From a virus (Duplodnaviria; Heunggongvirae; Uroviricota; Caudoviricetes), in IMG/VR virus record IMGVR_UViG_2778261575_000004: 26,181 nucleotides of DNA; one strand, given 5' to 3'. Under the pieces are notes generated by a model. That model saw nothing but the letters and a program-made list of their open reading frames with translations. It was not told the DNA's origin and did not search any database. Each line of letters begins with the position of its first letter. Position 1 is the first letter of the stretch. A program made the translations under genes and the position numbers. Below, in pieces: positions 1 to 26,181 of this stretch.

Positions 1-1077
<1,077 letters not shown>

Positions 1078-1094
1078 TTACATATTGTTTTCTT

Positions 1095-1114
1095 ATTGTG
1101 ATCAAAAACAACAA
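1095..1114 (-). promoter_or_regulatory. Candidate cAMP-CRP site of the csiD promoter
   Basis: TGTGA-N6-ACAAC (ttgTGTGAtcaaaaACAACaa) about 120 bp upstream of the csiD start codon in a very AT-rich region. csiD is known to be sigmaS- and CRP-dependent; the exact site cannot be verified from sequence alone. Confidence 0.3.
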
Positions 1115-1511
1115 ATTAATAACAAATAATGTGAGGGATAAGAATTGGGTTGAAAGGAAATGAATAATTAAAACAATATATTAAGTGTGCTTATACTCTT
1201 TTTCGAACTGGTGGCATTTGTTTAAATGCTATTTAAACTGCTTTTTCAGAGTTCAACTTACTGAGTTCCGTGTCGACTAATGTGAGTAAGATCAATCGCA
1301 TCCAACCTATGTTACTTGATGGAATCGATAACAATATTAATGAATATACAGATTCCGGGAAGGCTGGCTATGGGGGCAAATTATTCTCTTTCTGGCAACG
1401 GGTAAATAACAGTGACCATTTGTCGAGAAGCTGATACTGAGCTGAGGGATACTGTATATGTCTGGACTGTAATTGGATGAATTCTATTCAGGGCGGGTCA
1501 GGACCAATAAA

Positions 1512-1537
1512 AAAGCCCGCATCAGCGGGCTTTAATG
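1512..1537 (-). terminator. Rho-independent terminator-like hairpin downstream of the tmRNA-like att repeat
   Basis: Stem AGCCCGC / GCGGGCT with 4-nt loop (1514-1531); on the minus strand it is followed by a TTTTTT run. Confidence 0.5.
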
Positions 1538-1640
1538 TCATAGGGAGTCGCGACTCCGTTGCGTATCCTTTTTTGTCTCCTCACCGTCTGGTCGGTGTCC
1601 TGCTGAGACTTATAACTTCCTGTTTTTGTTGGTGTAGTCC

Positions 1641-1686
1641 TTACACCGTCCAATCATGATTGGTGGAGCTGGCGGGAGTTGAACCC
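1641..1686 (-). other. Prophage attachment-site repeat: duplicated 3' end of tmRNA (ssrA), about 46 nt
   Basis: Reverse complement reads ATGTAGGAATTTCGGACGCGGGTTCAACTCCCGCCAGCTCCACCA, the 3'-terminal acceptor/T-arm of enterobacterial tmRNA. Similarity stops abruptly at 1687 and no tmRNA body follows. Lies next to the P2-type integrase. Confidence 0.6.
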
Positions 1687-1798
1687 GCGTCCGAAATTCC
1701 TACATACCATTTTCACTATAACAAAAACATTAACTTGCGTTTAAAATCATCAAGTTAGTATTATCTTATGTTTGTCCGTTTTACTCATTTTTAATGCT

Positions 1799-1818
1799 CT
1801 GTCGCCAATCTGTCGCCA
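1799..1818. repeat. Tandem direct repeat CTGTCGCCA x2 between att core and cargo gene
   Basis: ctgtcgcca at 1799-1807 and again at 1810-1818, about 115 bp from the att core. Possible integrase arm-type or accessory-factor site; not verifiable here. Confidence 0.25.
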
Positions 1819-1820
1819 CA

Positions 1821-2471
1821 TTATCCGCTGCTTGAGTTGAAATCTGTGGGTTTACGGAGATTAGATCTTATGGTTTTTTCAGCGATACGAATAGTCGAAA
1901 ATTTATGCAGGTTCATCAGTGCTATACAAATCCCAAGTGCAAAAAAGTAGCTGGACATTCCTAATCTTTGCATATCAGTAAGTTTATTAATTTTCTCTAA
2001 AATATGTTGGGTTACTAATCCTTCGTATACAAAAGGTATGGAAGTTATAAAACCGCCAATAAAATAGAAAGTTAAGCTTATCAGCTTTATAGATTTTCTA
2101 TATATCCAAAAGCGATATCTTTTTTTTGTCCATTTAAATATTTGTTTTTCACTACTAATAGAAATTAGTTTTTGACACTTGCTATAGTTATCAATGTCAT
2201 TAACTGGATCGTTAACACCTAAAAGAATCTCTCTCTGTTCTGGAGTTAGGTTCTTATCTTTTGTTATTGCAGCAATACCATAATTATATGCAACTTTCTT
2301 GATTTTGGGATCTTCAGTATTCTTATATAGATTGTATGCAAACTCGCTAATGTTTTTGCGCGAGTTGAAAATCTTATCTTTGGGGAAAACCCAGCCGGAT
2401 CTTACCGCGAGCATCTGTATGATCGGGGTAATTATCGCGACAGAATACTTAATTATCTCGTTTATGTTCAT
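1821..2471 (-). CDS. Hypothetical membrane protein, AT-rich cargo gene between att and int
   Basis: 216-aa ORF, visibly much more AT-rich than flanking phage genes. Two strongly hydrophobic segments near the C-terminus (LISLTFYFIGGFITSIPFVY; LGMSSYFFALGICIALMNL) and one near the N-terminus. No recognisable catalytic motif. Confidence 0.55.
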   Translation of the reverse strand: MNINEIIKYSVAIITPIIQMLAVRSGWVFPKDKIFNSRKNISEFAYNLYKNTEDPKIKKVAYNYGIAAITKDKNLTPEQREILLGVNDPVNDIDNYSKCQKLISISSEKQIFKWTKKRYRFWIYRKSIKLISLTFYFIGGFITSIPFVYEGLVTQHILEKINKLTDMQRLGMSSYFFALGICIALMNLHKFSTIRIAEKTIRSNLRKPTDFNSSSG

Positions 2472-3503: not shown

Positions 3504-4136
3504 TCAAAGGCTCTTAATGATTTTCAGTGCACGGCCTACTACCTCAATGTCATCCAGGCCACACTCAAACGATGAATCATCCTGATGCACTACTAATCTG
3601 TTTCCCGGGAGTCGAGTCAATTTAACAATGCTTTTTATCCCGTCGATATCGACTAACCACATACCATTCACTGGTGGTGTTTGGTTGCGATCTATTAAAT
3701 AAGAATCACCAGAAGTAGTCACCAGCAGTAGGTTGCTTGAGTCTGAGGGGAGTATGCTGCTATCAATGATTGCTTTTCCAGCATCGACCAATAAACCACC
3801 GTTGAGAGTCGCCTTGTCAATTTCAGGAGATACTAGTTCAGAAAGAGGTACAACCTTGCTGGAGTTCACGGAATTGATATTTTTTTTGGGTTCAATGTTT
3901 GGACCTGGCTCCCCCTGTCCGGTGGTTAGCCACAGTAAAGAAACTCCTGTTTCCAAGGCGCACTGAATCACCCACTCTGCAGGAAAACTATCTCTTAAGT
4001 ATCTGTTTGCCATGGTGCTTTTTGATGCGCCTAAGTGATCGCAAAGTTGCTGTCTGGACTTGAAATCATAGGCTGCCATTAGTCTATGGATAGCTTCTCT
4101 TCCCCCTGTATTCTCTCCAGCCTTTACCTGTATCAT
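3504..4136 (-). CDS. cI: CI-type immunity repressor (186 CI-like, N-terminal HTH)
   Basis: 210-aa ORF immediately upstream of int on the same strand (stop at 3504, int start at 3502). Position and divergent arrangement with the apl/cII operon match the 186 lysogenic operon. Confidence 0.8.
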   Translation of the reverse strand: MIQVKAGENTGGREAIHRLMAAYDFKSRQQLCDHLGASKSTMANRYLRDSFPAEWVIQCALETGVSLLWLTTGQGEPGPNIEPKKNINSVNSSKVVPLSELVSPEIDKATLNGGLLVDAGKAIIDSSILPSDSSNLLLVTTSGDSYLIDRNQTPPVNGMWLVDIDGIKSIVKLTRLPGNRLVVHQDDSSFECGLDDIEVVGRALKIIKSL

Positions 4137-4255: not shown

Positions 4256-4498
4256 ATGAGCACTGATATTTCAATTCGTGTACCAAAAGAGATGGCTACG
4301 CCTGCAGAGTTCGCGGAATGGGAAGGTATCTCCCGCGGCTCCGTGTATCAAAAAATTCACCATGGTCAGCTTGCTAAATACATGGTCAAGAAAGAAAAAA
4401 ATAAAGGCCGCGTAAACCTTCGTTATCTGATGTACAAAACTGATCAGGTCCGTGAATCCCTCGGTCATTCCAACTTCCGCGTCATTGTTGGTAAGTAA
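4256..4498 (+). CDS. apl: Apl/Cox-like small HTH excisionase and lytic regulator
   Basis: 80-aa ORF, first gene of the rightward operon opposite cI; size and position match 186 Apl. Confidence 0.7.
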   Translation: MSTDISIRVPKEMATPAEFAEWEGISRGSVYQKIHHGQLAKYMVKKEKNKGRVNLRYLMYKTDQVRESLGHSNFRVIVGK

Positions 4499-4530: not shown

Positions 4531-5040
4531 ATGTTTGATTACAAGATTTCCAAACATCCGCATTTCGATGAAGCCTGTAGGGCTTTTGCACTGCGTCACA
4601 ACCTGGTGCAACTGGCAGAACGTGCAGGCATGAATGTACAGATTCTGCGGAACAAGCTGAACCCAGCTCAGCCTCATTTATTAACCGCACCAGAAATCTG
4701 GCTGCTTACCGATCTGACTGAAGATTCAACGCTGGTAGATGGTTTTCTGGCACAGATTCATTGTCTGCCATGTGTACCGATTAATGAGGTGGCAAAAGAG
4801 AAACTGCCACATTACGTCATGAGTGCAACCGCAGAGATCGGGCGTGTTGCTGCAGGTGCGGTATCTGGCGATGTAAAAACCTGTGCCGGTCGTCGTGATG
4901 CTATCAGCAGCATTAACTCTGTAACACGACTGATGGCGCTGGCGGCTGTTTCATTGCAGGCCCGTTTACAGGCTAATCCTGCGATGGCGAGTGCAGTTGA
5001 TACCGTGACTGGCCTCGGTGCTTCATTCGGTTTGCTGTGA
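4531..5040 (+). CDS. cII: CII-like lysogeny establishment regulator
   Basis: 169-aa ORF with strong RBS (AAGGGGG), second gene of the early operon; size and position match 186 CII. Confidence 0.65.
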
Positions 5041-5047
5041 GGTGCTT

Positions 5048-5344
5048 ATGCTGACGAAAGAACCATCATTTGCATCGCTGCTGGTAAAACAAAGCCCGGC
5101 AATGCACTACGGTCACGGCTGGATCATGGGTGAGGATGGTAAACGCTGGCATCCGTGCCGTTCACAAGATGAATTGCTGTCTGAATTGACCACGGGGAAA
5201 CGGAGAAAGTCAAAATGTATGCAGCGGAAAGTGAAGTGGTTTATCAGTTTCGTTACAGAGGGGAGAGTTATTCAGTACCTGAAGATGATTTGCTCTGTTG
5301 TTATCCGTCGTTGTCGGGCGATGGCAGTTACTTTTTCACGCTAA
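5048..5344 (+). CDS. Hypothetical early protein (Fil-like position); 3' end uncertain
   Basis: ORF starting at ATG 5048 after GAGGTG. Its last ~130 nt overlap, in another frame, the better-supported ORF starting at 5215, so the true C-terminus or the reading frame is uncertain. Confidence 0.35.
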   Translation: MLTKEPSFASLLVKQSPAMHYGHGWIMGEDGKRWHPCRSQDELLSELTTGKRRKSKCMQRKVKWFISFVTEGRVIQYLKMICSVVIRRCRAMAVTFSR

Positions 5345-6630: not shown

Positions 6631-7484
6631 GCACCATCCTGAAATGGGCGGGAAATAAAACCGCAATTATGTCTGAACTGAAAAAACACCTTCCTGCTGG
6701 CCCGCGACTGGTTGAACCTTTCGCGGGTTCCTGTGCTGTGATGATGGAGACGGATTATCCAAGCTATCTGGTTGCGGATATTAATCCTGATTTAATCAAC
6801 CTCTATAAAAAGGTTGCCGCTGATTGTGAATCGTTTATATCTCGCGCCAGAGTTTTATTTAAGGAAGCAAACAGGGAGGTGGCTTATTACAACATAAGGC
6901 AGGAGTTTAATTACTCAAATGAAATTACTGATTTCATGAAAGCGGTATATTTCCTGTATCTCAATCGTCACGGTTACCGTGGTTTATGTCGCTATAACAA
7001 GAGCGGGCATTTCAACATTCCCTACGGTAATTATAAAAATCCGTATTTCCCAGAAAAAGAAATTCGCGCATTTGCAGAAAAAGCCCAGCGGGCAACGTTT
7101 ATCTGCGCCAGCTTTGATGAAACGCTGGCGATGTTGAAGGCGGGGGATGTGGTGTATTGCGATCCGCCGTATGACGGCACGTTTTCCGGTTATCACACTG
7201 ACGGCTTCACTGAAGATGACCAGTATCACCTGGCATCCGTTCTTGAACATCGGTCATCAGAAGGACATCCGGTCATTGTTTCTAACAGTGACACATCCCT
7301 GATCCGTTCGCTGTATCGCAATTTTACTCACCACTACATCAAGGCAAAACGCAGCATCGGTGTGGCAGCTGGCGAGGGTAAATCAGCAACAGAAATCATT
7401 GCTGTTTCCGGGCCGCGCTGCTGGGTGGGATTTGATTATTCGCGTGGCGTGGATAGTTCTGCCGTGTACGGAGTACGTGCATGA
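6627..7484 (+). CDS. dam: DNA adenine methyltransferase (Dam-type, GATC-class N6-adenine MTase)
   Basis: Start ATG 6627 after AGGAGG. N-terminal KWAGNK and FAGSCAV motifs (AdoMet binding) and a DPPY catalytic motif (VYCDPPY). Confidence 0.9.
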
Positions 7485-9895
7485 GTCATGCCGATATGAA
7501 CAACTGCTGCGGCTTTAACGAAGCTGCCGCATCGTTCTCATGGAACAGCCCGAAAAAGGCCATTAACCCTTATCTGGACCCGGCGGAAGTTGCGCCGGTT
7601 TCTACGCTTTCAAACCTGATCACTCTGTACGCTGCCGATAACGAGCAGGAACAGCTGCGCCGTGAGGCGCTGAGTGATCAGGTCTGGGAGCGTTATTTCT
7701 TTAATGAATCCCGTGATCCTGTCCAGCGCGAAATGGAGCAGGATAAGCTCATTAGTCGGGCAAAGCTGGCGCATGAGCAGCAGCGTTTTAACCCGGACAT
7801 GGTCATTCTGGCAGACGTCAGCGCCCAGCCCTCCCATATCAGCAAGCCGCTGATGCAACGTATTGAATACTTCAGCAGCCTTGGCAGGCCAAAGGCTTAT
7901 TCCCGCTATTTGCGTGAGACGATTAAGCCATGTCTGGAACGGCTGGAGCATGTACGCGACAGTCAGCTATCCACATCTTTTCGCTTTATGGCAAGCCATG
8001 AAGGGCTGGACGGCCTGCTGATTCTGCCTGAAATGAGTCAGGATCAGGTGAAACGCCTGTCCACCCTTGTTGCTGCGCATATGAGCATGTGCCTTGATGC
8101 AGCTTGTGGCGATTTGTATGCCACCGATGACGTTAAGCCAGAAGAAATCCGCAAGACATGGGAAAAGGTGGCAGCAGAAACCCTGCGACTGGATGTCATA
8201 CCGCCTGCGTTTGAGCAACTCCGCCGGAAAAGAAACCGCCGTAAACCCGTGCCATATGAACTCATTCCGGGTTCGCTGGCGCGTATGTTGTGCGCCGATT
8301 GGTGGTACCGGAAATTATGGAAGATGCGTTGCGAATGGCGGGAAGAGCAGTTGCGTGCTGTTTGCCTGGTCAGCAAAAAAGCATCTCCCTATGTCAGCTA
8401 TGAAGCCGTGATGCATAAACGTGAGCAGCGCCGTAAGTCGCTGGAGTTTTTCCGTTCTCATGAACTGGTGAACGAAGACGGCGACACGCTGGACATGGAG
8501 GATGTGGTAAACGCCAGCAGCAGCAACCCTGCGCATCGCCGCAATGAGATGATGGCCTGTGTTAAAGGTCTGGAGCTTATCGCGGAAATGCGCGGTGACT
8601 GCGCCGTTTTCTACACCATCACCTGTCCGTCACGTTTCCATTCCACGCTAAATAACGGCAGGCCCAACCCGACCTGGACAAATACGACGGTAAGACAAAG
8701 CAGTGATTATCTGGTCGGCATGTTTGCTGCATTTCGTAAGGCGATGCACAAAGCCGGATTGCGCTGGTATGGCGTGCGGGTGGCTGAGCCGCATCATGAC
8801 GGTACAGTTCACTGGCACCTGTTGTGTTTTATGCGCAAAAAAGATCGCCGCACCATTACTGCTTTGTTGCGTAAGTTTGCCATTCGTGAAGACCGCGAGG
8901 AGCTGGGTAATAACACGGGACCACGCTTTAAGTCTGAGCTGATAAACCCGCGCAAAGGTACGCCAACAAGCTACATCGCGAAATACATCAGTAAGAACAT
9001 TGACGGGCGTGGTCTGGCTGGCGAGATCAGCAAGGAAACGGGTAAATCCCTGCGTGATAACGCTGAATACGTTAATGCCTGGGCGTCTCTGCATCGTGTT
9101 CAGCAATTCCGCTTCTTTGGCATTCCGGGGCGTCAGGCTTACCGTGAACTGCGATTGCTGGCTGGTCAGGCGGCAAGGCAACAGGGGGACAAAAAAGCAG
9201 GTGCGCCGGTACTGGATAACCCGCGCCTTGATGCAATCCTGGCTGCTGCTGATGCTGGTTGTTTTGCCACCTACATCATGAAGCAGGGCGGCGTACTGGT
9301 TCCCCGCAAATATCACCTCATCAGAACTGCTTATGAAATCAACGAAGAACCGACCGCATATGGCGATCACGGTATTCGTATTTATGGCATCTGGTCACCC
9401 ATTGCAGAGGGCAAGATCTGCACTCATGCGGTGAAGTGGAAAATGGTTCGTAAGGCCGTTGACGTTCAGGAGGCGGCAGCCGACCAGGGCGCTTGCGCCC
9501 CTTGGACTCGTGGCAATAACTGTCCCCTTGCTGAAAATTTGCACCAACAAGGGAAAGACAAATCAACTGATGGGGATACCAGAACGGATATCACCCGTAT
9601 GAATGACAAGGAGTTGCACGATTACCTGCACAGTATGAGCAAAAAAGAGCGCCGGGAACTGACAGCAAGATTACGCCTGGTGAAACCGAAACGGCGTAAA
9701 GACTACAAACAGCGAATTACAGAGTATCAGCGTCAGCAGCTTGTCTATGAACTGAAGTCCAGAGGATTTGATGGCAGCGAGAAAGAAGTCGATTTGCTCC
9801 TTCGCGGTGGCAGTATTCCATCAGGAGCAGGCCTGCGTATCTTCTATCGGAACCAGCGTCTGAAGGAAGATGATAAGTGGCGGAACCTGTATTAA
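7481..9895 (+). CDS. A: Replication initiation endonuclease, P2 gpA family (rolling-circle initiator)
   Basis: 804-aa ORF, ATGA-coupled to dam; contains the HxH metal-binding motif (TVHWHLLCF) and the conserved tyrosine-containing region ([14 protein letters not shown]) typical of gpA-type nickases. Confidence 0.9.
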
Positions 9896-9987
9896 TTACG
9901 CGGGTTAACAATTCGTGCTCTTAATAATACCAGGCATATCAGGCTGATGAACGTAAAAAAACGTTTTACATCAGTAATATTATTATA

Positions 9988-10007
9988 TACTGCAAATATA
10001 AACAGTG
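9988..10007 (+). promoter_or_regulatory. LexA box (SOS operator) upstream of the tum-like gene
   Basis: TACTGCAAATATAAACAGTG matches the CTG-N10-CAG LexA consensus (taCTGTatatatatACAGta). A second, weaker overlapping box lies at 10003-10022 (CAGTGATTATATATACAGTG). About 40 bp upstream of ATG 10048. Confidence 0.6.
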
Positions 10008-10047
10008 ATTATATATACAGTGTTGCTTTGGTGTCATAGGAGGAAAG

Positions 10048-10236
10048 ATGCAGGACTATTTTTTGGAGTCTTTGAAGCTCCAGCGCATTGATTTTTTTCT
10101 TAAGCTTGTAGCGGCTAGTGAGTGTAGTGATGAAGAGAAGGGGCTGGCCCTGCAGTGGGTTTCTGAACTGACAGATGAACTCATGGCAAAAATCAGAACC
10201 CACGAATACAACCGCTCAATGGATGTCATCAGTTGA
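10048..10236 (+). CDS. Tum-like antirepressor, N-terminal portion (possibly one gene with the next ORF)
   Basis: 62-aa ORF with RBS GGAGGAAAG directly downstream of the LexA box. Overlaps, in a different frame, the 5' extension of the following DinI-like ORF. Confidence 0.45.
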   Translation: MQDYFLESLKLQRIDFFLKLVAASECSDEEKGLALQWVSELTDELMAKIRTHEYNRSMDVIS

Positions 10237-10246
10237 GGTGGCTTTT

Positions 10247-10480
10247 ATGCGCATTGAAATAATGATCGATAAAGAGCAGAAGATTAGCCAGTCTACCCTG
10301 GACGCCCTTGAATCCGAGCTTTACCGCAATCTGCGCCCCCTGTATCCCAAAACGGTAATTCGTATCCGCAAAGGTAGCTCTAACGGTGTGGAACTGACCG
10401 GACTGCAACTGGACGAAGAAAGAAAACAAGTGATGAAAATTATGCAGAAGGTGTGGGAAGACGACAGCTGGCTGCATTAG
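10247..10480 (+). CDS. DinI-family protein (Tum C-terminal domain-like)
   Basis: 77 aa beginning MRIEIMIDKEQ...RIRKGSSNGVELTGLQLDEERKQVMKIMQKVWEDDSWLH, which resembles DinI (MRIEVTIAKT...ETWESADDWF). Confidence 0.75.
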   Translation: MRIEIMIDKEQKISQSTLDALESELYRNLRPLYPKTVIRIRKGSSNGVELTGLQLDEERKQVMKIMQKVWEDDSWLH

Positions 10481-10549
10481 AGAACGTTGCGGATGATAAA
10501 ACTAGCTTTTACCATCTGCAAGGCTGAACAACGATTGTAGCGAGGTGTT

Positions 10550-10599
10550 AGGTGGTTCAAAAGTAAAGCGGTTATTTTGCCCGTAAAAGTGAACCACCT
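10550..10599. repeat. Perfect 10-bp inverted repeat (AGGTGGTTCA ... TGAACCACCT) with 30-nt spacer between convergent genes
   Basis: Arms at 10550-10559 and 10590-10599, followed by a T-rich stretch; lies between the DinI-like gene (+) and the 246-aa hotspot gene (-). Confidence 0.4.
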
Positions 10600-10608
10600 G
10601 TATCTTGA

Positions 10609-11349
10609 TCAGTTTTCTTTGAATTTTTCACTTAATCGTTTCGTCAATACTTCGACAGATTCTTTGCGACCGGAGAACAAGTCATTGACGACGTACTCCA
10701 TAATCTCAAAAGCATCCTCAATGTCTTTGACTTTTACTTCATCGTAGGTATGGCTTCCGGCATTTCCTAAAAATTTAATTGCCATAAGAGGTCTTGAAAA
10801 CGATCCGTATAATTCAGGTAGCATCCCTAAACGGTGGTGTAGAGTTATGCGTTTGCCATTATCATTACGTTCAGCTACATCCATAGCGGTTAGCATTCTT
10901 TCAACTGAAATTCGAATTAGGTTTGCTGCTGCGCCAGGCTGTATTAGGAAAATGGAAAATGAGGCTTCAAGCGGTTCGGTAATTTCTTCTGGGCATTTTT
11001 CAGGTATTTCGAAAGGATGCAGTGATGGGTAAAAGGTGAAAGGTCTGTGCCATTGATAGTACTCAATATCATTTCTTTCTTCATCCCAACCTTGTTCCCA
11101 TCCACTCTTACCAGTACAGGCCACAACTTCACCACATTGCATTCTTGAACAGCGGGCCATGCAACTGAAAATAGATGAATCCATTTCTAGTTCAAACCAA
11201 TCTTCACTGCGGAATTTTCGGGTATCATGTGTGTCATACGAGACGAAACTTTCTTTAATGATCTGTAGGGTTTTCTGATTGCAGTTAGGGCAGGGCCACT
11301 CAACCTGCATATCGTGGAAAAACGCACCAGAGAGCTTGTGCACAGTCAT
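10609..11349 (-). CDS. Hypothetical protein: N-terminal Cys-rich zinc-ribbon-like region plus C-terminal DUF4145-like helical domain; candidate defence/exclusion gene at the P2 tin/old position
   Basis: 246-aa ORF with RBS GAGGAA, AT-rich. Cys pairs CPNC (20-23) and C63/C67/C72/C78. C-terminal LIRISVERMLTAM...AIKFLGNAGSHT...VKDIEDAFEIMEYVVNDLF resembles, from memory, the GN.a.H-containing DUF4145 domain. Sits between A/tum and cos, where P2 carries tin and old. Confidence 0.6.
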   Translation of the reverse strand: MTVHKLSGAFFHDMQVEWPCPNCNQKTLQIIKESFVSYDTHDTRKFRSEDWFELEMDSSIFSCMARCSRMQCGEVVACTGKSGWEQGWDEERNDIEYYQWHRPFTFYPSLHPFEIPEKCPEEITEPLEASFSIFLIQPGAAANLIRISVERMLTAMDVAERNDNGKRITLHHRLGMLPELYGSFSRPLMAIKFLGNAGSHTYDEVKVKDIEDAFEIMEYVVNDLFSGRKESVEVLTKRLSEKFKEN

Positions 11350-11550
11350 TCTTTGTGTTCCTCATTTTTATGATTGGTAGGGATTGTATCTTCATACACG
11401 ATTACAGTTGCATTAAAGATAAGCCATAGCAAGCTACTGGAAAAGAGACGAAACAGTTGGGCATATCAGATGTTTTTTCTTAAGGTAAGTTGTTGTGCAT
11501 GCCTATACTGCATGAGATTGCATGATCGTTTGAGGATCGTTATTGCTAAG

Positions 11551-11575
11551 GCCCACCAGAACTGGCGGGCTTTTG
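11551..11575 (+). other. Imperfect hairpin followed by TTTTG in the cos-proximal region
   Basis: GCCCACC-agaac-TGGCGGGC then TTTTGCG; one mismatch in the stem. Could be a terminator or a packaging-related structure. Confidence 0.25.
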
Positions 11576-11619
11576 CGTAGAGCATGCAGGTGCATGAAAA
11601 CCACTACATAAAGCGGGCA

Positions 11620-11638
11620 GGCGTGGCGGGGATACGAG
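11620..11638. other. cos-like site (P2/186-type cohesive end sequence)
   Basis: GGCGTGGCGGGGA matches the first 13 nt of the 19-nt cohesive end as I recall it for 186 (GGCGTGGCGGGGAAAGCAT) and P2 (GGCGAGGCGGGGAAAGCAC); followed by a GCGCGC-rich segment. Lies between the A-side hotspot and portal gene Q, as expected for a P2-like prophage. Confidence 0.4.
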
Positions 11639-11910
11639 CGCGCGCCGCGGGTTGAAATAGTAAAATTCACTTAGCCTCAGGCCCGCTGATGGTTTTCTTC
11701 TGAAAGGGAGGGCGCGTTTTTGTGCAATCTTGTTTGAAGGGATTTAAATAAATGTTGAATGTGTTCCGGAGTTGGCTGTAGATTTAGTGTTCTGTCACAA
11801 GTTGCAGTGATAGGTAGCAAACCTTTAAAAGGTTCTGCTATTGTTTCATTAAAGATTTATAGTCTTTGTCCGAAAATGACATTAAAGTAGTCGCCTTTAA
11901 TGTCGTAAGC

Positions 11911-12465
11911 ATGAAGGACAGAGAATTGAACTTAGAGCAGATTGCCAGTCAAAGTATAAGTAACCTTCAGTTTCTCCTCGATACTTTGAAGATGCCGTTG
12001 GCTGTTGGTCCAATCAGTGATGAAGACTATGTGATCCTGACCACAGGATACGCTCAGCTAGAATGGGATTATGGTTTTTCTCGGTTTGGCAATCGAAGTG
12101 ATAAGTTTGAATTTTGTTTGAAGCTCCTTGCGGGGCCACTTAGGCATATCCCTTCTGGCGCAGCTATGTGCACCTTTGACGAGGACGCTGGAGTCATAGA
12201 GATCCATTTTGTGGAATCTTTTGTGAAAGATGATGACGTAGAGCACCCTCTTTACGGCAACATGTTCATGGTTACATTGTGGGCGGTATATCTTTTTGGT
12301 AGCGCGGTTGGGTGTCAAGAGATTCGGATCCCTGAAGCCCTGAATCAAAAAGTTGCTGACCACTATAAAAAATTTGGTTTTAAAGGTGATATAAGCTTGC
12401 TTTCGGCACCTTTTGCTACAATAACTGATGTAGTAAGACGCTACATTACTTCTAAGAAACAGTAG
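11911..12465 (+). CDS. Hypothetical protein, cargo between cos and Q (possible degenerate GNAT-like C-terminus)
   Basis: 184 aa from ATG 11911 (the ORF track gives 199 aa from TTG 11866). C-terminal ...ALNQKVADHYKKFGFKGD is reminiscent of the GNAT motif-B signature, but no clear motif A is seen; assignment weak. Confidence 0.5.
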   Translation: MKDRELNLEQIASQSISNLQFLLDTLKMPLAVGPISDEDYVILTTGYAQLEWDYGFSRFGNRSDKFEFCLKLLAGPLRHIPSGAAMCTFDEDAGVIEIHFVESFVKDDDVEHPLYGNMFMVTLWAVYLFGSAVGCQEIRIPEALNQKVADHYKKFGFKGDISLLSAPFATITDVVRRYITSKKQ

Positions 12466-12544
12466 ATAAATTTTTGCGCAGTGCTACAATGCTGCGCCAA
12501 ACATCCACCACCGGATGATGAGGCTTGACCTCTAAGAGGAAATC

Positions 12545-12724
12545 ATGACTATGACGCATAGTGACAAGAAAGCTCAGAAGCATTACTCAGTATCTGATGT
12601 TTTCAGCCGTATGGGCGTCGCGATGGAAGAACTACTTCAAGCGGCCCCACATATGATGCAGGACTGCAAATTTGAAGGAAATGAGCTGCATGGTAAGCTC
12701 AAAGAAAAGCAGAAAGCTGCTTAA
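12545..12724 (+). CDS. Small hypothetical protein (59 aa)
   Basis: Hand-translated ORF not in the supplied track: ATG 12545 preceded by AAGAGGA at 7 nt, stop TAA 12722-12724, immediately followed by a strong terminator. Confidence 0.35.
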   Translation: MTMTHSDKKAQKHYSVSDVFSRMGVAMEELLQAAPHMMQDCKFEGNELHGKLKEKQKAA

Positions 12725-12747
12725 TTCCATGAAATGCGTTTTGCATG

Positions 12748-12775
12748 AAGCCCGGTAATACCGGGCTTTTTTATG
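12748..12775 (+). terminator. Rho-independent terminator
   Basis: Perfect palindrome AAGCCCGGTA-A-TACCGGGCTT followed by TTTTTTAT; lies between the small ORF and the 3' end of Q. Confidence 0.7.
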
Positions 12776-12779
12776 CTTG

Positions 12780-13817
12780 CTAGTCAGTATTAAGCTCATA
12801 TGGATTGAATCGGACTACCTCTTCACCAAGCCATTCATTTAGCTCCAGCAATCGCTTTTGTAACGGTACTATTTCGTTTCTTGTGAAGACGCGACTGGCC
12901 TTTTCCACATCCCCAAAACCGCCGGTATTGTTGGGAATGATACCCATCATTTGCGGCGGCACACGATGCGCCGCCATCATGTCGTCCCGGCTCACGTTCT
13001 TGATATTCAGGAACTCATCCTTCGCCGCCACTTCTGACAACGGGATAATCTGAAGCCCATCCTTTTTGCCGTTAGGCGAGTACATAAACAGGTTACGGAA
13101 GTTACCAGGACCTTTGGCACTTTTCATTGCGTTGCGGAGGTTGTTCACATCCTCCTGGTTCTGCGCGGCGTCGGTCATGTACATGATGAAGCCCGCATGG
13201 CTGCCGTTAATGTAATACTTCCGGCGGAACAGCGTGGCGGACTCGTTGAGCAGGGCTGACGGAATGGCAGAAAGATAACCGGGCAGGCCGTAGATCTCCT
13301 GGTTGATGTCCGGCTCCATCAGATGAAAAATGCTGCCTTTCGTGAACTGATACGGCTGGGTTGTCATACTGTATTGCACAAACCAGTAGGTATCCAGGTC
13401 TAACCCGCGTCGGGTGTATTTTGCCAGAGCAGGCTCAAGGGCTATAACTTCACCGAAGCGGTTCGTGCGTTTCTCCAGGTAGGCGTTACCAAAAACCAGA
13501 AAGTCCTGTACAAAACGCGAAAAAGCCTGCTGGCTGAGCAGCGGGTGAGGGATGTAGGTGCTGGTCAGAATGTTGCACTTCACTGCAATCGGTGAGCTAT
13601 GATGTATGGCGGCGCGGAAGGTTCGCGCCAGTCCGTCGAAACTCACAGGCAGCTCATACCAACGATCCATCTGTACGCATTCCACATAGTCCAGCAGTTC
13701 GCGGCGGTCCAGAACAGGAACGGGATCACCGAAGCTGAATGCTTCGGCTGAAGTCTGGCTTTTATGCTGGATCTGTTTCGTCGACGCAGCGCGGTTCTTC
13801 TTACTCTTTCCCATCAA
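12780..13817 (-). CDS. Q: Portal protein (P2 gpQ family)
   Basis: 345-aa ORF, first of the leftward Q-P late operon; size and position as in P2; 4-nt overlap with P. Confidence 0.88.
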   Translation of the reverse strand: MMGKSKKNRAASTKQIQHKSQTSAEAFSFGDPVPVLDRRELLDYVECVQMDRWYELPVSFDGLARTFRAAIHHSSPIAVKCNILTSTYIPHPLLSQQAFSRFVQDFLVFGNAYLEKRTNRFGEVIALEPALAKYTRRGLDLDTYWFVQYSMTTQPYQFTKGSIFHLMEPDINQEIYGLPGYLSAIPSALLNESATLFRRKYYINGSHAGFIMYMTDAAQNQEDVNNLRNAMKSAKGPGNFRNLFMYSPNGKKDGLQIIPLSEVAAKDEFLNIKNVSRDDMMAAHRVPPQMMGIIPNNTGGFGDVEKASRVFTRNEIVPLQKRLLELNEWLGEEVVRFNPYELNTD

Positions 13818-21088: not shown

Positions 21089-21527
21089 ACTGCAGAAAGT
21101 GGACGACTGGCTGAGTGCCTTGCTGGCGAATCTGGAGCCAGCCGCAAGAAGCCGCATGATGCGCCAGCTGGCGCAGGAACTACGCCGGACACAGCAGCAA
21201 AATATCAGAATGCAGCGCAATCCAGATGGCAGCAGTTATGAACCGCGACGGGTAACAGCACGCAGTAAAAAAGGCCGTATCAAACGTCAGATGTTTGCAA
21301 AGCTGCGCACCACAAAATACCTGAAAACTTCCGCCAGCGCCGACTCTGCCAGCGTGCAGTTTGAAGGCAAGGTACAGCGCATTGCCCGTGTTCATCACTA
21401 CGGCTTACGTGATCGCGTCAGCCGCAAAGGACCGGAGGTCCGTTACGCAGAGCGTCGCCTTCTGGGTGTAAATGATGATGTTGAGGCAATGACCCGCGAC
21501 ATGATTCTGCAATGGCTGGCGGGGTGA
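21081..21527 (+). CDS. S: Tail completion protein S (P2 gpS family)
   Basis: 148 aa, GTG start overlapping the R stop. Confidence 0.8.
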   Translation: MAELQKVDDWLSALLANLEPAARSRMMRQLAQELRRTQQQNIRMQRNPDGSSYEPRRVTARSKKGRIKRQMFAKLRTTKYLKTSASADSASVQFEGKVQRIARVHHYGLRDRVSRKGPEVRYAERRLLGVNDDVEAMTRDMILQWLAG

Positions 21528-21531
21528 TTTT

Positions 21532-21549
21532 TGTATCAGTACTGATACA
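21532..21549 (+). promoter_or_regulatory. Late-promoter activator site (Ogr/B-type) upstream of V
   Basis: Perfect dyad TGTATCAGTACTGATACA (TGT-N12-ACA) about 50 bp upstream of the V start in the S-V intergenic region. Confidence 0.55.
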
Positions 21550-21595
21550 AGTTGCAGCACTGCCGCCTTTCTTCCCCTGATGGCAACCTTTCCCT

Positions 21596-24023: not shown

Positions 24024-25579
24024 GCATAAAATTTTATACCCTGCTGACGGATATTGGCGCGGCGAAACTTGCCAGCGCCGCCGCGCTCGGTGTGCCTTTA
24101 AAAATTACCCATATGGCGGTCGGCGATGGCGGCGGAACATTGCCAACGCCGGACGCAAAGCAGACAGCACTGGTAAATGAGAAACGCCGGGCTGCGCTGA
24201 ATATGCTCTATATCGACCCGCAGAACAGCAGCCAGATTATTGCTGAACAGGTGATCCCTGAAAACGAGGGCGGTTGGTGGATACGTGAAGTGGGCCTGTT
24301 TGATGAGTCCGGGGCATTGATTGCCGTGGGCAACTGCCCGGAAAGCTATAAGCCACAACTGGCTGAAGGCAGCGGGCGCACCCAGACCGTGCGCATGGTG
24401 CTGATTACCAGCAGTACGGACAATATCACCCTGAAAATCGACCCTGCTGTAGTGCTGGCAACCCGTAAATACGTGGATGATAAAGTCCTGGAATTAAAGC
24501 TGTATGTGGATGACCAGATGAGAAACCACATTGCCGCACAAGATCCTCATACCCAGTATGCGCAGAAACATAATCCGACATTTACCGGAGAACCAAAAGC
24601 GCCGACGCCTGCAGCAGGAAATAACACCACTCGGATTGCGACCACAGAGTTTGTTCAGGCCGCTATTACTGCTCTGATTAACGGTGCGCCAGCCACGCTG
24701 GACACACTGAAAGAAATTGCCGCAGCCATTAACAATGACCCGAAATTCAGTACCACTATTAATAATGCGCTGGCACTGAAAGCGCCGCTGTCGAGTCCGG
24801 CACTTACCGGAACGCCAACAGCACCTACTGCGGCACAGTCGGTCAACAATACACAGATTGCCACTACGGCTTTTGTGAAATCGGCGATTGCAGGAATGGT
24901 GGGTTCTGCACCTGCGGCACTGGATACATTGAACGAACTGGCGGCGGCGCTGGGGAATGACCCGAACTTTGCCACGACAATGCTTAATGCGTTGGCAGGT
25001 AAACAACCGCTGGACAATACGCTGACTAATTTGAGTGGAAAGGATGTAGCTGGTCTTCTCGCATACCTTGGTTTGGGAGAAGGCTCTGCATTACCTGTTG
25101 GGGTGCCTGTTCCGTGGCCCTCAGCCACTCCGCCAACAGGCTGGCTGAAATGCAACGGAGCAGCTTTTTCTGCTGAAGAATACCCGGAACTGGCAAAGGC
25201 TTACCCGACAAATAAATTGCCTGATTTACGCGGTGAATTTATTCGTGGCTGGGATGATGGGCGTAGTGCGGATGCGGGGAGAACAATATTATCCGCTCAG
25301 GGCGATGCCATACGTAATATCTATGGTGAGTTCAAGACTGTAAACACCGAAAATTATTCAATATGGGAATCAGTAGGCTCATTTAAGGGGGCAGTGGTGC
25401 CTTTGAACCCCTCAACGAACAATAGTTATTTCTCCTTAGTCAGAAGTATGGTGACAGAAAGGTCCGAGGGCGGTGTTTACCCAAAAGTGATTGGCCTTGA
25501 TGCTTCAAGAATTGTTCCAACTGCAAACGAAAATCGACCCCGTAACATTGCCTTTAATTATATCGTGAGGGCTGCCTGA
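24020..25579 (+). CDS. H: Tail fibre protein H (mosaic: P2 gpH-like N-terminus, lambda Stf-like C-terminal region)
   Basis: 519 aa. N-terminal MSIKFYTLLTDIGAAKLA...MAVGDGGG matches P2 gpH; internal tail-fibre repeats (TGEPKAPTPAAGNNTTRIATTEFV / TGTPTAPTAAQSVNNTQIATTAFV; AAALGNDPNFATTM); C-terminus ends NIAFNYIVRAA, as lambda Stf does. Confidence 0.88.
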   Translation: MSIKFYTLLTDIGAAKLASAAALGVPLKITHMAVGDGGGTLPTPDAKQTALVNEKRRAALNMLYIDPQNSSQIIAEQVIPENEGGWWIREVGLFDESGALIAVGNCPESYKPQLAEGSGRTQTVRMVLITSSTDNITLKIDPAVVLATRKYVDDKVLELKLYVDDQMRNHIAAQDPHTQYAQKHNPTFTGEPKAPTPAAGNNTTRIATTEFVQAAITALINGAPATLDTLKEIAAAINNDPKFSTTINNALALKAPLSSPALTGTPTAPTAAQSVNNTQIATTAFVKSAIAGMVGSAPAALDTLNELAAALGNDPNFATTMLNALAGKQPLDNTLTNLSGKDVAGLLAYLGLGEGSALPVGVPVPWPSATPPTGWLKCNGAAFSAEEYPELAKAYPTNKLPDLRGEFIRGWDDGRSADAGRTILSAQGDAIRNIYGEFKTVNTENYSIWESVGSFKGAVVPLNPSTNNSYFSLVRSMVTERSEGGVYPKVIGLDASRIVPTANENRPRNIAFNYIVRAA

Positions 25580-26181
25580 TGGATAAAGCTATATTAAATA
25601 AGGAACTCATCGCCACAAAGGCGGGAGATATTACCGTTTATAATTATGATGGTGAAACACGAGAATATATTTCCACATCAACCGAATATCTTGCTGTGGG
25701 TGTCGGTATCCCGGCATGTTCCTGTTTAGATGCTCCTGGCTCATATAAAGCTGGTTATGCAATTTGCCGTTCTGCAGATTTTAACTCATGGGAATATGTG
25801 CCAGACCATCGCGGTGAAACGGTATATAGCACCGAAACAGGAGAATCAAAAGAAATCACAGCTCCGGGTGATTACCCTGAAAAGACAACCACTATCGCCC
25901 CGTTAACGCCATACGATAAATGGGATGGTGAGAAATGGGTGACGGATACCGAGGCACAGCATAGAGCAGCAGTAGACATGGCAGAAACACAGCGGCAGTC
26001 GCTGATTGATGCTGCAATGGTTTCCATTAGTCTGATTCAACTGAAATTGCAGGCCGGGCGGAAGCTGACGCAGACAGAAAACACCCGACTTAACGCTGTG
26101 CTGGATTACATTGACGCGGTGACGGCAACAGATACCAGCACAGCGCCGGACGTCATCTGGCCTGAACTGCCGGAGGCGTAG
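25579..26181 (+). CDS. G: Tail fibre assembly chaperone (P2 gpG / lambda Tfa family)
   Basis: 200 aa, ATGA-coupled to H; DHRGETVY, KWDGEKWVTDTEA and TSTAPDVIWPELP resemble lambda Tfa motifs; stop TAG at 26179-26181. Confidence 0.82.
   Translation: MDKAILNKELIATKAGDITVYNYDGETREYISTSTEYLAVGVGIPACSCLDAPGSYKAGYAICRSADFNSWEYVPDHRGETVYSTETGESKEITAPGDYPEKTTTIAPLTPYDKWDGEKWVTDTEAQHRAAVDMAETQRQSLIDAAMVSISLIQLKLQAGRKLTQTENTRLNAVLDYIDAVTATDTSTAPDVIWPELPEA

Follow-up and report, generated by a model that had tools for sequence, protein, structure and literature searches.

Introduction

Elements that integrate into tRNA and tmRNA genes leave a recognisable pair of marks: integration splits the target gene, DNA carried by the island restores it, and the regenerated gene and a displaced fragment then mark the two ends of the element (PMC4383910). 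Among known integration targets, the tmRNA gene (ssrA) shows the strongest enrichment (PMC4383910). Coliphage 186 and other P2-like phages that integrate into tRNA genes carry the 3' end of their target gene and in this way keep the gene intact (PMC3448106), and a passage of the same paper, citing Pelludat et al. 2003, gives ssrA as the integration site of the Salmonella phages SopEPhi and Fels-2. In E. coli, the phage Cartapus is prophage 4 of the AIEC strain LF82 (OV696611.1; Peduoviridae, Elveevirus; PMC9928086). It is spontaneously induced in that strain, and its boundaries in the LF82 chromosome were placed at 2,735,987-2,769,354 from virome and attP sequencing (PMC9928086).

Here we compare these systems with a viral DNA of 26,181 nt (IMG/VR record IMGVR_UViG_2778261575_000004), the whole of which we call the window. 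An earlier note on this DNA had read its left part as the boundary of a prophage inserted into ssrA. Our analysis supports this interpretation overall and corrects only the coordinates of the tmRNA fragment and its distance from csiD. The features discussed below are collected in Table 1.

Table 1. Coordinates of features in the window, with strand and the evidence or remark attached to each.
Feature	Position	Strand	Basis or remark
glaH (csiD), glutarate dioxygenase	1-978	-	ORF; annotated glaH in matching genomes
Native ssrA-glaH intergenic spacer, bacterial flank B' of attR	979-1659	.	Identity to empty-site genomes
Intrinsic-terminator-like hairpin	1503-1533	-	Terminator scan: 9-bp stem, loop of 4, T-run
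attR core	1660-1705	-	46-bp block: ssrA 3' 45 nt (1661-1705) plus one A after CCA (1660)
Phage P arm of attR	1706-1820	.	Match to int-proximal arm of Cartapus and Fels-2 attP over 1706-1830
Left 24.5 kb of ~33.9-kb prophage, P2-like (186/Fels-2) type	1706-26181	.	ORF map, Pfam
Two direct repeats TCTGTCGCCA, 11 nt apart (TGGCGACA in ssrA sense)	1798-1818	+	Conserved alignment columns
216-aa cargo gene (phrog_21256)	1821-2471	-	Variable slot between int and attR
Tyrosine integrase, 338 aa	2486-3502	-	Pfam Int_N and Phage_integrase (PF00589, PF24624)
186-type CI repressor	3504-4136	-	Pfam Phage_CI_repr and Phage_CI_C
Apl-type protein	4256-4498	+	99% identity to protein annotated Apl in Fels-2 record
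cII	4531-5040	+	CP76
gpA	7481-9895	+	Phage_GPA
DinI-like gene	10175-10480		In gpA-Q variable region
DUF4145 protein	10609-11349		Weak PADLOC PD-T7-4 match, 1.6e-05
phrog_4350 protein	11866-12465		In gpA-Q variable region
Q, P, O, N, M, onward to tail fibre	from 12780		ORF map; Pfam on contig L005

Results

A tmRNA 3' end in the window

The 3'-terminal 45 nt of E. coli tmRNA (ATGTAGGAATTTCGGACGCGGGTTCAACTCCCGCCAGCTCCACCA) matched the minus strand of the window at 1661-1705 with 45 of 45 positions identical, and the terminal 45 nt of the annotated 363-nt ssrA of NGF1 are the same 45 nt. The match occurs once in the window, even when up to three mismatches are allowed, and it was found in none of 100 dinucleotide-preserving shuffles, even at three mismatches. 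The earlier note had placed this tmRNA 3' end at 1641-1686. The fragment is real, and its strand and its length of about 46 nt had been read correctly, but its true place is 1661-1705; the coordinates were off by 20 nt, and the end assigned to the finding (1690) falls inside the core. The alignment to the ssrA 3' terminus that had been proposed as a check is thus exact at the corrected position. The distance to csiD, given as about 650 bp, measured 682 bp to the csiD/glaH start codon (978).

The absence of a tmRNA body behind the fragment, also claimed from the letters, was borne out by the gene-finding programs. ARAGORN called no tmRNA gene in the window and no tmRNA passed there at the Rfam gathering thresholds, the fragment scoring 43.8 bits against a gathering score of 47. 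Within the Rfam alignment, high posterior probability was confined to the ∼45 3' nt, and the positions upstream were low-probability filler. A functional tmRNA gene has a complete tRNA-like domain with both the 5' and the 3' acceptor strand, a tag reading frame and pseudoknots, and the fragment does not supply this set. A lenient Rfam search does return a hit over 240 nt (E = 3.2e-16), which might be taken to indicate a degenerate second tmRNA gene. However, the sequence upstream of the core in the ssrA sense is arm DNA common to phage genomes, the confident part of the alignment is restricted to the last ∼45 nt, and a two-piece or degenerate tmRNA was rejected on the ARAGORN and Rfam results; the shuffles argue in the same way against a chance similarity. 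We give these two readings together a practically negligible probability. The block at 1660-1705 is a displaced, non-functional ssrA fragment.

The chromosomal flank and the empty site

To the left of the fragment, the window reads as ordinary E. coli chromosome. Over positions 900-1705, many complete E. coli genomes with an empty site have the sequence of the window at 100% identity. This identity ends exactly at 1705, beyond which the empty-site genomes continue into the body of ssrA. In NGF1 the empty locus has the order glaH, 682 bp, ssrA, smpB, and in the window no extra DNA separates the core from this native flank. When a 205-nt junction probe was run against 5,426 complete E. coli genomes, the empty junction, i.e. 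the native flank directly on an intact ssrA, was present in 2,535 of them; the type of occupied attR junction seen in the window was present in 85 complete genomes. The comparison with genomes lacking the prophage, which had been proposed as a way to define the empty site, therefore agrees with an element that fills the ssrA-csiD interval. It shows the phage to be inserted into a previously unoccupied ssrA. Of the marks used by Islander (PMC4383910), the element has the displaced 3' part of a tDNA, here ssrA, at one end and a tyrosine integrase gene inside it on the minus strand, and related genomes have an unoccupied site whose sequence breaks off from the window exactly at the repeat.

The native flank also contains the terminator-like hairpin listed in Table 1. 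The same hairpin is found downstream of the intact ssrA in the empty site. It is probably the gene's own terminator, which integration has left behind the displaced fragment.

Attachment sites and phage arm

The att sites were aligned in the ssrA sense, using the attR of the window, the attB of NGF1, the attR and attL of H22 and the attP of Cartapus. On the downstream side of the core the window is the same as attB, and on the upstream side it is the same as the P arm of attP. In H22 attL the upstream side is the ssrA body and the downstream side is the P' arm of attP. The sequence common to all five sites is the 45 nt plus the A that follows CCA, which makes 46 bp (window 1660-1705), and the alignment as a whole has the POB'/BOP' pattern of site-specific integration, in keeping with the integration footprint that had been suspected. 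The left boundary of the prophage can thus be set exactly: the bacterial sequence runs to 1659 and the phage sequence starts at 1706, with the repeat (1660-1705) between them.

That the phage itself bears a copy of the ssrA 3' end, as the earlier note had supposed, can be seen in the genomes of two relatives. The attP of Cartapus has the exact 45-nt core between the int-side and the ogr-side cargo genes, and the Fels-2 record (NC_010463) is split within the same 45-nt core, with the same proximal arms at its two ends. The window shares with this ssrA-specific group of Fels-2, SopEPhi and Cartapus an attP core that is the ssrA 3' end, together with conserved arms.

Because several types of island use ssrA and tandem arrays occur at the locus, it could be argued that the fragment is a scar left by an earlier island, since lost, and that the P2-like prophage merely lies beside it. 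This is very improbable given the structure of the junction: the fragment runs directly into the P arm, in exactly the arrangement that attP has in the free phages Cartapus and Fels-2, the unit of P arm plus core travels with the phage into other contexts, and on its other side the core sits directly on the native flank with nothing between.

The Cartapus attP contains four copies of TGGCG(A/G)CA in the same sense, two per arm with a spacing of 11 nt, and the pair of direct repeats in the P arm of the window corresponds to one of these pairs. For the motif TGNCGCCA by itself, the window has 11 matches where 5.2 are expected, and since 3 of 100 shuffles also reach 11, this excess is not significant. 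We propose the repeats at 1798-1818 as candidate arm-type Int-binding sites because of the 11-nt-spaced pair and its conservation in attP, and not because of the motif count.

The far end of the element

The window ends (26181) inside the tail-fibre region, before ogr and attL. The far end was followed in L005, a contig of assembly GCA_002971415.1 that encodes the tail-fibre protein of the window and differs from the window at 1 position in 12,162 nt. Beyond ogr, this contig has a cargo gene for a 160-aa protein, then the P' arm, and then the core again, without mismatch, at 21516-21560; the locus as read stops exactly at the inner edge of this second copy. The second copy is equivalent to window positions 35535-35579, in the same orientation as the first copy and 33,874 bp from it, so that attL is predicted to lie ∼9.4 kb beyond the end of the window. 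A second core copy at the other prophage end had been predicted from the window, and the 46-bp block is indeed present at both ends.

The intact ssrA that was expected beyond the far end is seen, at its full 363 nt, in three relatives, in each case in DNA that corresponds to positions past the window. In H22 the far end has the order ogr, cargo, intact ssrA, smpB; in 13P477T a complete 363-nt ssrA adjoins the P' arm, which has 98.8% identity to the L005 arm, and leads on to smpB; and in LF82 the arrangement is the same, with an intact 363-nt ssrA adjoining smpB. In these relatives the regenerated tDNA that Islander looks for at the other end of an element is present in full. This type of attL, with an annotated ssrA under the match, was found in 176 complete genomes. 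A hairpin borne by the phage, its 12-bp stem followed by a T-run, starts 8 nt past the CCA end in L005 (21507-21480).

In LF82 the core copy maps to 2,769,309-2,769,353, ssrA ends at 2,735,985 and glaH starts at 2,770,036. The published boundaries of Cartapus therefore fall on the edges of the 46-bp blocks, and its site is that of the prophage in the window.

With the flank and the arms taken into account, we consider it very likely that 1660-1705 is the attR core of a P2-like prophage of the 186/Fels-2 type that entered the 3' end of ssrA, a reading that draws on the match of attR, attB, attL and attP across these genomes.

Prophage genes and cargo

The genes to the right of the P arm have the module order of P2 (cII, A, Q, P, O, N, M and then on to the tail fibre) together with the 186-type CI, Apl and cII that define the 186/Fels-2 type of the Peduoviridae; Phage_GPO, cap_P2 and related families were found in L005. 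The integrase is 94% identical to the Int proteins of both Fels-2 and Cartapus, and the next-closest integrases in the phage collection are at ∼55% identity or less. The ICTV rule for genera uses a threshold of 70% whole-genome nucleotide identity; compared with Klebsiella and E. coli P2-like phage records, the window, in which the prophage is partial, gave 76-84% coverage at ∼95% identity. On gene content and sequence identity, the prophage is a 186/Fels-2-type P2-like member of the family Peduoviridae, with Escherichia phage Cartapus as its closest named relative. The integrase would catalyse the recombination of attP with ssrA, as judged from its identity to the Fels-2 and Cartapus enzymes and the published excision and attP data for Cartapus, and the Apl-type protein is presumed to be the excision directionality factor, a role taken from phage 186.

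The 216-aa cargo protein next to attR contains hydrophobic stretches and is indexed in 1,356 blocks of a public assembly collection; searches of it with Pfam and PADLOC returned no match. Elsewhere, the slot between int and attR holds a 222-aa protein (H22), a 309-aa protein (FDAARGOS_1287) or a 401-aa RES-domain protein (LF82/Cartapus), and this comparison marks it as a place where the cargo varies. Gene content also varies in a second region, from gpA to the portal gene Q (window 9895-12780). In related prophages, the annotations outside the core genes include P-loop NTPase, DUF262, AIPR, HEPN, NACHT or anti-phage dCTP deaminase genes. Cargo is also present between ogr and attL, where L005 (20910-21392, minus strand) and LF82 (2736109-2736591) each encode a protein of 160 aa with a match to phrog_2561, a phage family that carries the annotation 'DNA ligase', and with weak BRCT similarity. 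Two Cartapus genes are reported to rise well above the expression background of the prophage, and the LF82 copy of this gene is among them (PMC9928086).

Arrays, decay and possible rearrangements at related loci

Several related loci combine the same junction with other DNA. In five of them, L010 (SCU-172) and L007 (PCJD01000001.1), locus 4652-5072, together with L008, L009 and L014, the P arm and the 45-nt core are identical to those of the window, and directly after CCA there are islands with a P4-type integrase (∼400 aa, Arm-DNA-bind_3) instead of the glaH spacer. These loci are tandem arrays of different elements at ssrA, which bears out the description of the interval as island-rich.

The displaced core itself varies among relatives. 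In H22 the attR core, at about 13563-13601, is without 6 nt (TGGAGC) of the acceptor-stem part, and in ERZ15610543 it is without 1 nt (AGC-CCACCA). In LR-33 (AP027523.1), a truncated cII adjoins smpB and the ogr-side cargo gene (160 aa), and after it come CI, int and the same 216-aa cargo gene as in the window.

These losses bear on the possibility that the window contains a true attR whose prophage has become fixed and is no longer excisable, the fragment being a fossil. Displaced fragments do decay, as the H22 and ERZ15610543 copies demonstrate, and LR-33 carries a deleted remnant of this same prophage. However, in the window the core is intact at all 45 positions, as are the P arm and its repeats, every P2-type gene seen is a full-length ORF, L005, which is nearly identical, has an intact second core, and spontaneous induction is known for the sister phage Cartapus at this site (PMC9928086). 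We regard a cryptic prophage as unlikely, and retain the attR of a prophage that is potentially still excisable as the preferred reading.

Other relatives may have been rearranged in or near the tail-fibre region. The attR junction closest to that of the window (98%) is in FDAARGOS_1287. In this locus (about 26290-42001) the tail-fibre assembly genes are followed by baseplate, tail and head genes of a different prophage, which stand in place of the stretch from the sheath gene through ogr to ssrA. The arrangement points to a rearrangement in the tail-fibre region between the two prophages. We dropped FDAARGOS_1287 as a witness for attL, its prophage being joined to another one there. The contig NLMS01000011.1 ends 16 nt past the end of the window, at the tail-fibre assembly genes (window 25579-26181), and in L005 (12134-13616) the tail-fibre assembly genes are followed by inverted copies of tail-fibre genes and a resolvase-type invertase. 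These features fit an invertible tail-fibre segment that breaks assemblies.

The record of 'plasmid p13P477T-2' (NZ_CP019275.1; also NZ_CP019274.1), which is 37 kb long and is also found in the phage collection, has ssrA, smpB, ratA, bamE and recN adjoining P2-like tail genes. We rejected it as an excised phage circle with attP, since it carries smpB, ratA, bamE and recN, and it is probably a chromosomal piece mis-assigned as a plasmid; as such it still serves to illustrate attL.

Discussion

We read the integration of this phage as follows. In its attP, 46 bp identical to the end of ssrA are flanked by arms bearing the TGGCG(A/G)CA repeats, and the tyrosine integrase, presumably bound at the core and at the arm sites, recombined attP with ssrA within the 46 bp. 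Because the phage and host cores are identical, the sequence narrows the crossover to this block and not to a point within it. The body of ssrA was thereby joined to a 3' end and a putative terminator from the phage; this hybrid gene lies outside the window, beside smpB at the ogr end. The 3' end that ssrA had before, together with its own spacer and probable terminator, was displaced by ∼33.9 kb and now lies beside glaH, where it abuts the int-proximal arm. The only likely role of the displaced fragment would then be as a substrate for excision by Int and Apl. The stranded native hairpin would stop transcription of int and cargo before the csiD promoter.

The working ssrA of the lysogen would end in phage-derived sequence with the 12-bp-stem hairpin shortly after it. 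Integration swaps the 3' flank of the working gene: in empty-site strains the first terminator-like hairpin (window 1533-1512) is ∼128 nt beyond the CCA end, compared with 8 nt in the lysogen. If the new flank changed the maturation or abundance of tmRNA, the phage would tune host trans-translation and ssrA would be more than a neutral landing pad, and the stranded native hairpin would in addition shield csiD/glaH from transcription out of int and cargo; we consider this reading distinctly improbable.

Of the described phages, Cartapus is most like the prophage in the window. It occupies the same chromosomal site (smpB, ssrA, prophage, glaH) and agrees with the window in its 46-bp core, in the layout of its arms with their TGGCG(A/G)CA repeats and in gene order; its genome is ∼33.4 kb. 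It differs in the cargo beside int, a RES-domain gene in Cartapus and the phrog_21256 gene in the window, and in the content of its A-Q hotspot; the junction region is ∼93% identical.

Fels-2 and SopEPhi are also P2-like phages with the 186 regulatory type. The core of Fels-2 is identical over 45 nt, its P' arm is nearly identical to that of H22 and its proximal P arm is similar. As in the window type, its int is at the end with the displaced fragment and its ogr at the end with the intact gene. Unlike the prophage in the window it has a Salmonella host, other cargo and a different distal arm sequence, and the ICTV has placed it in the genus Felsduovirus, apart from the genus of Cartapus.

Coliphage 186 and the P2-like phages that integrate into tRNA genes have the same CI/Apl/cII switch and a tyrosine integrase, whereas the targets of 186 are the tRNA-Ile genes ileY/ileX and not ssrA (PMC3448106). 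The islands with P4-type integrases also target ssrA and leave displaced ssrA 3' fragments, but they are not P2-like phages and their ∼400-aa integrases have the domains Arm-DNA-bind_3, Phage_int_M and Phage_integrase. CP4-57 of E. coli K-12 is an example of such an island at ssrA.

The phage type and its insertion site in ssrA have thus already been described, in LF82 and in Salmonella. The present analysis helps with the annotation of such prophages and the location of their cargo slots, and adds no new biology to the known system. The prophage in the window differs from its described relatives in cargo only.
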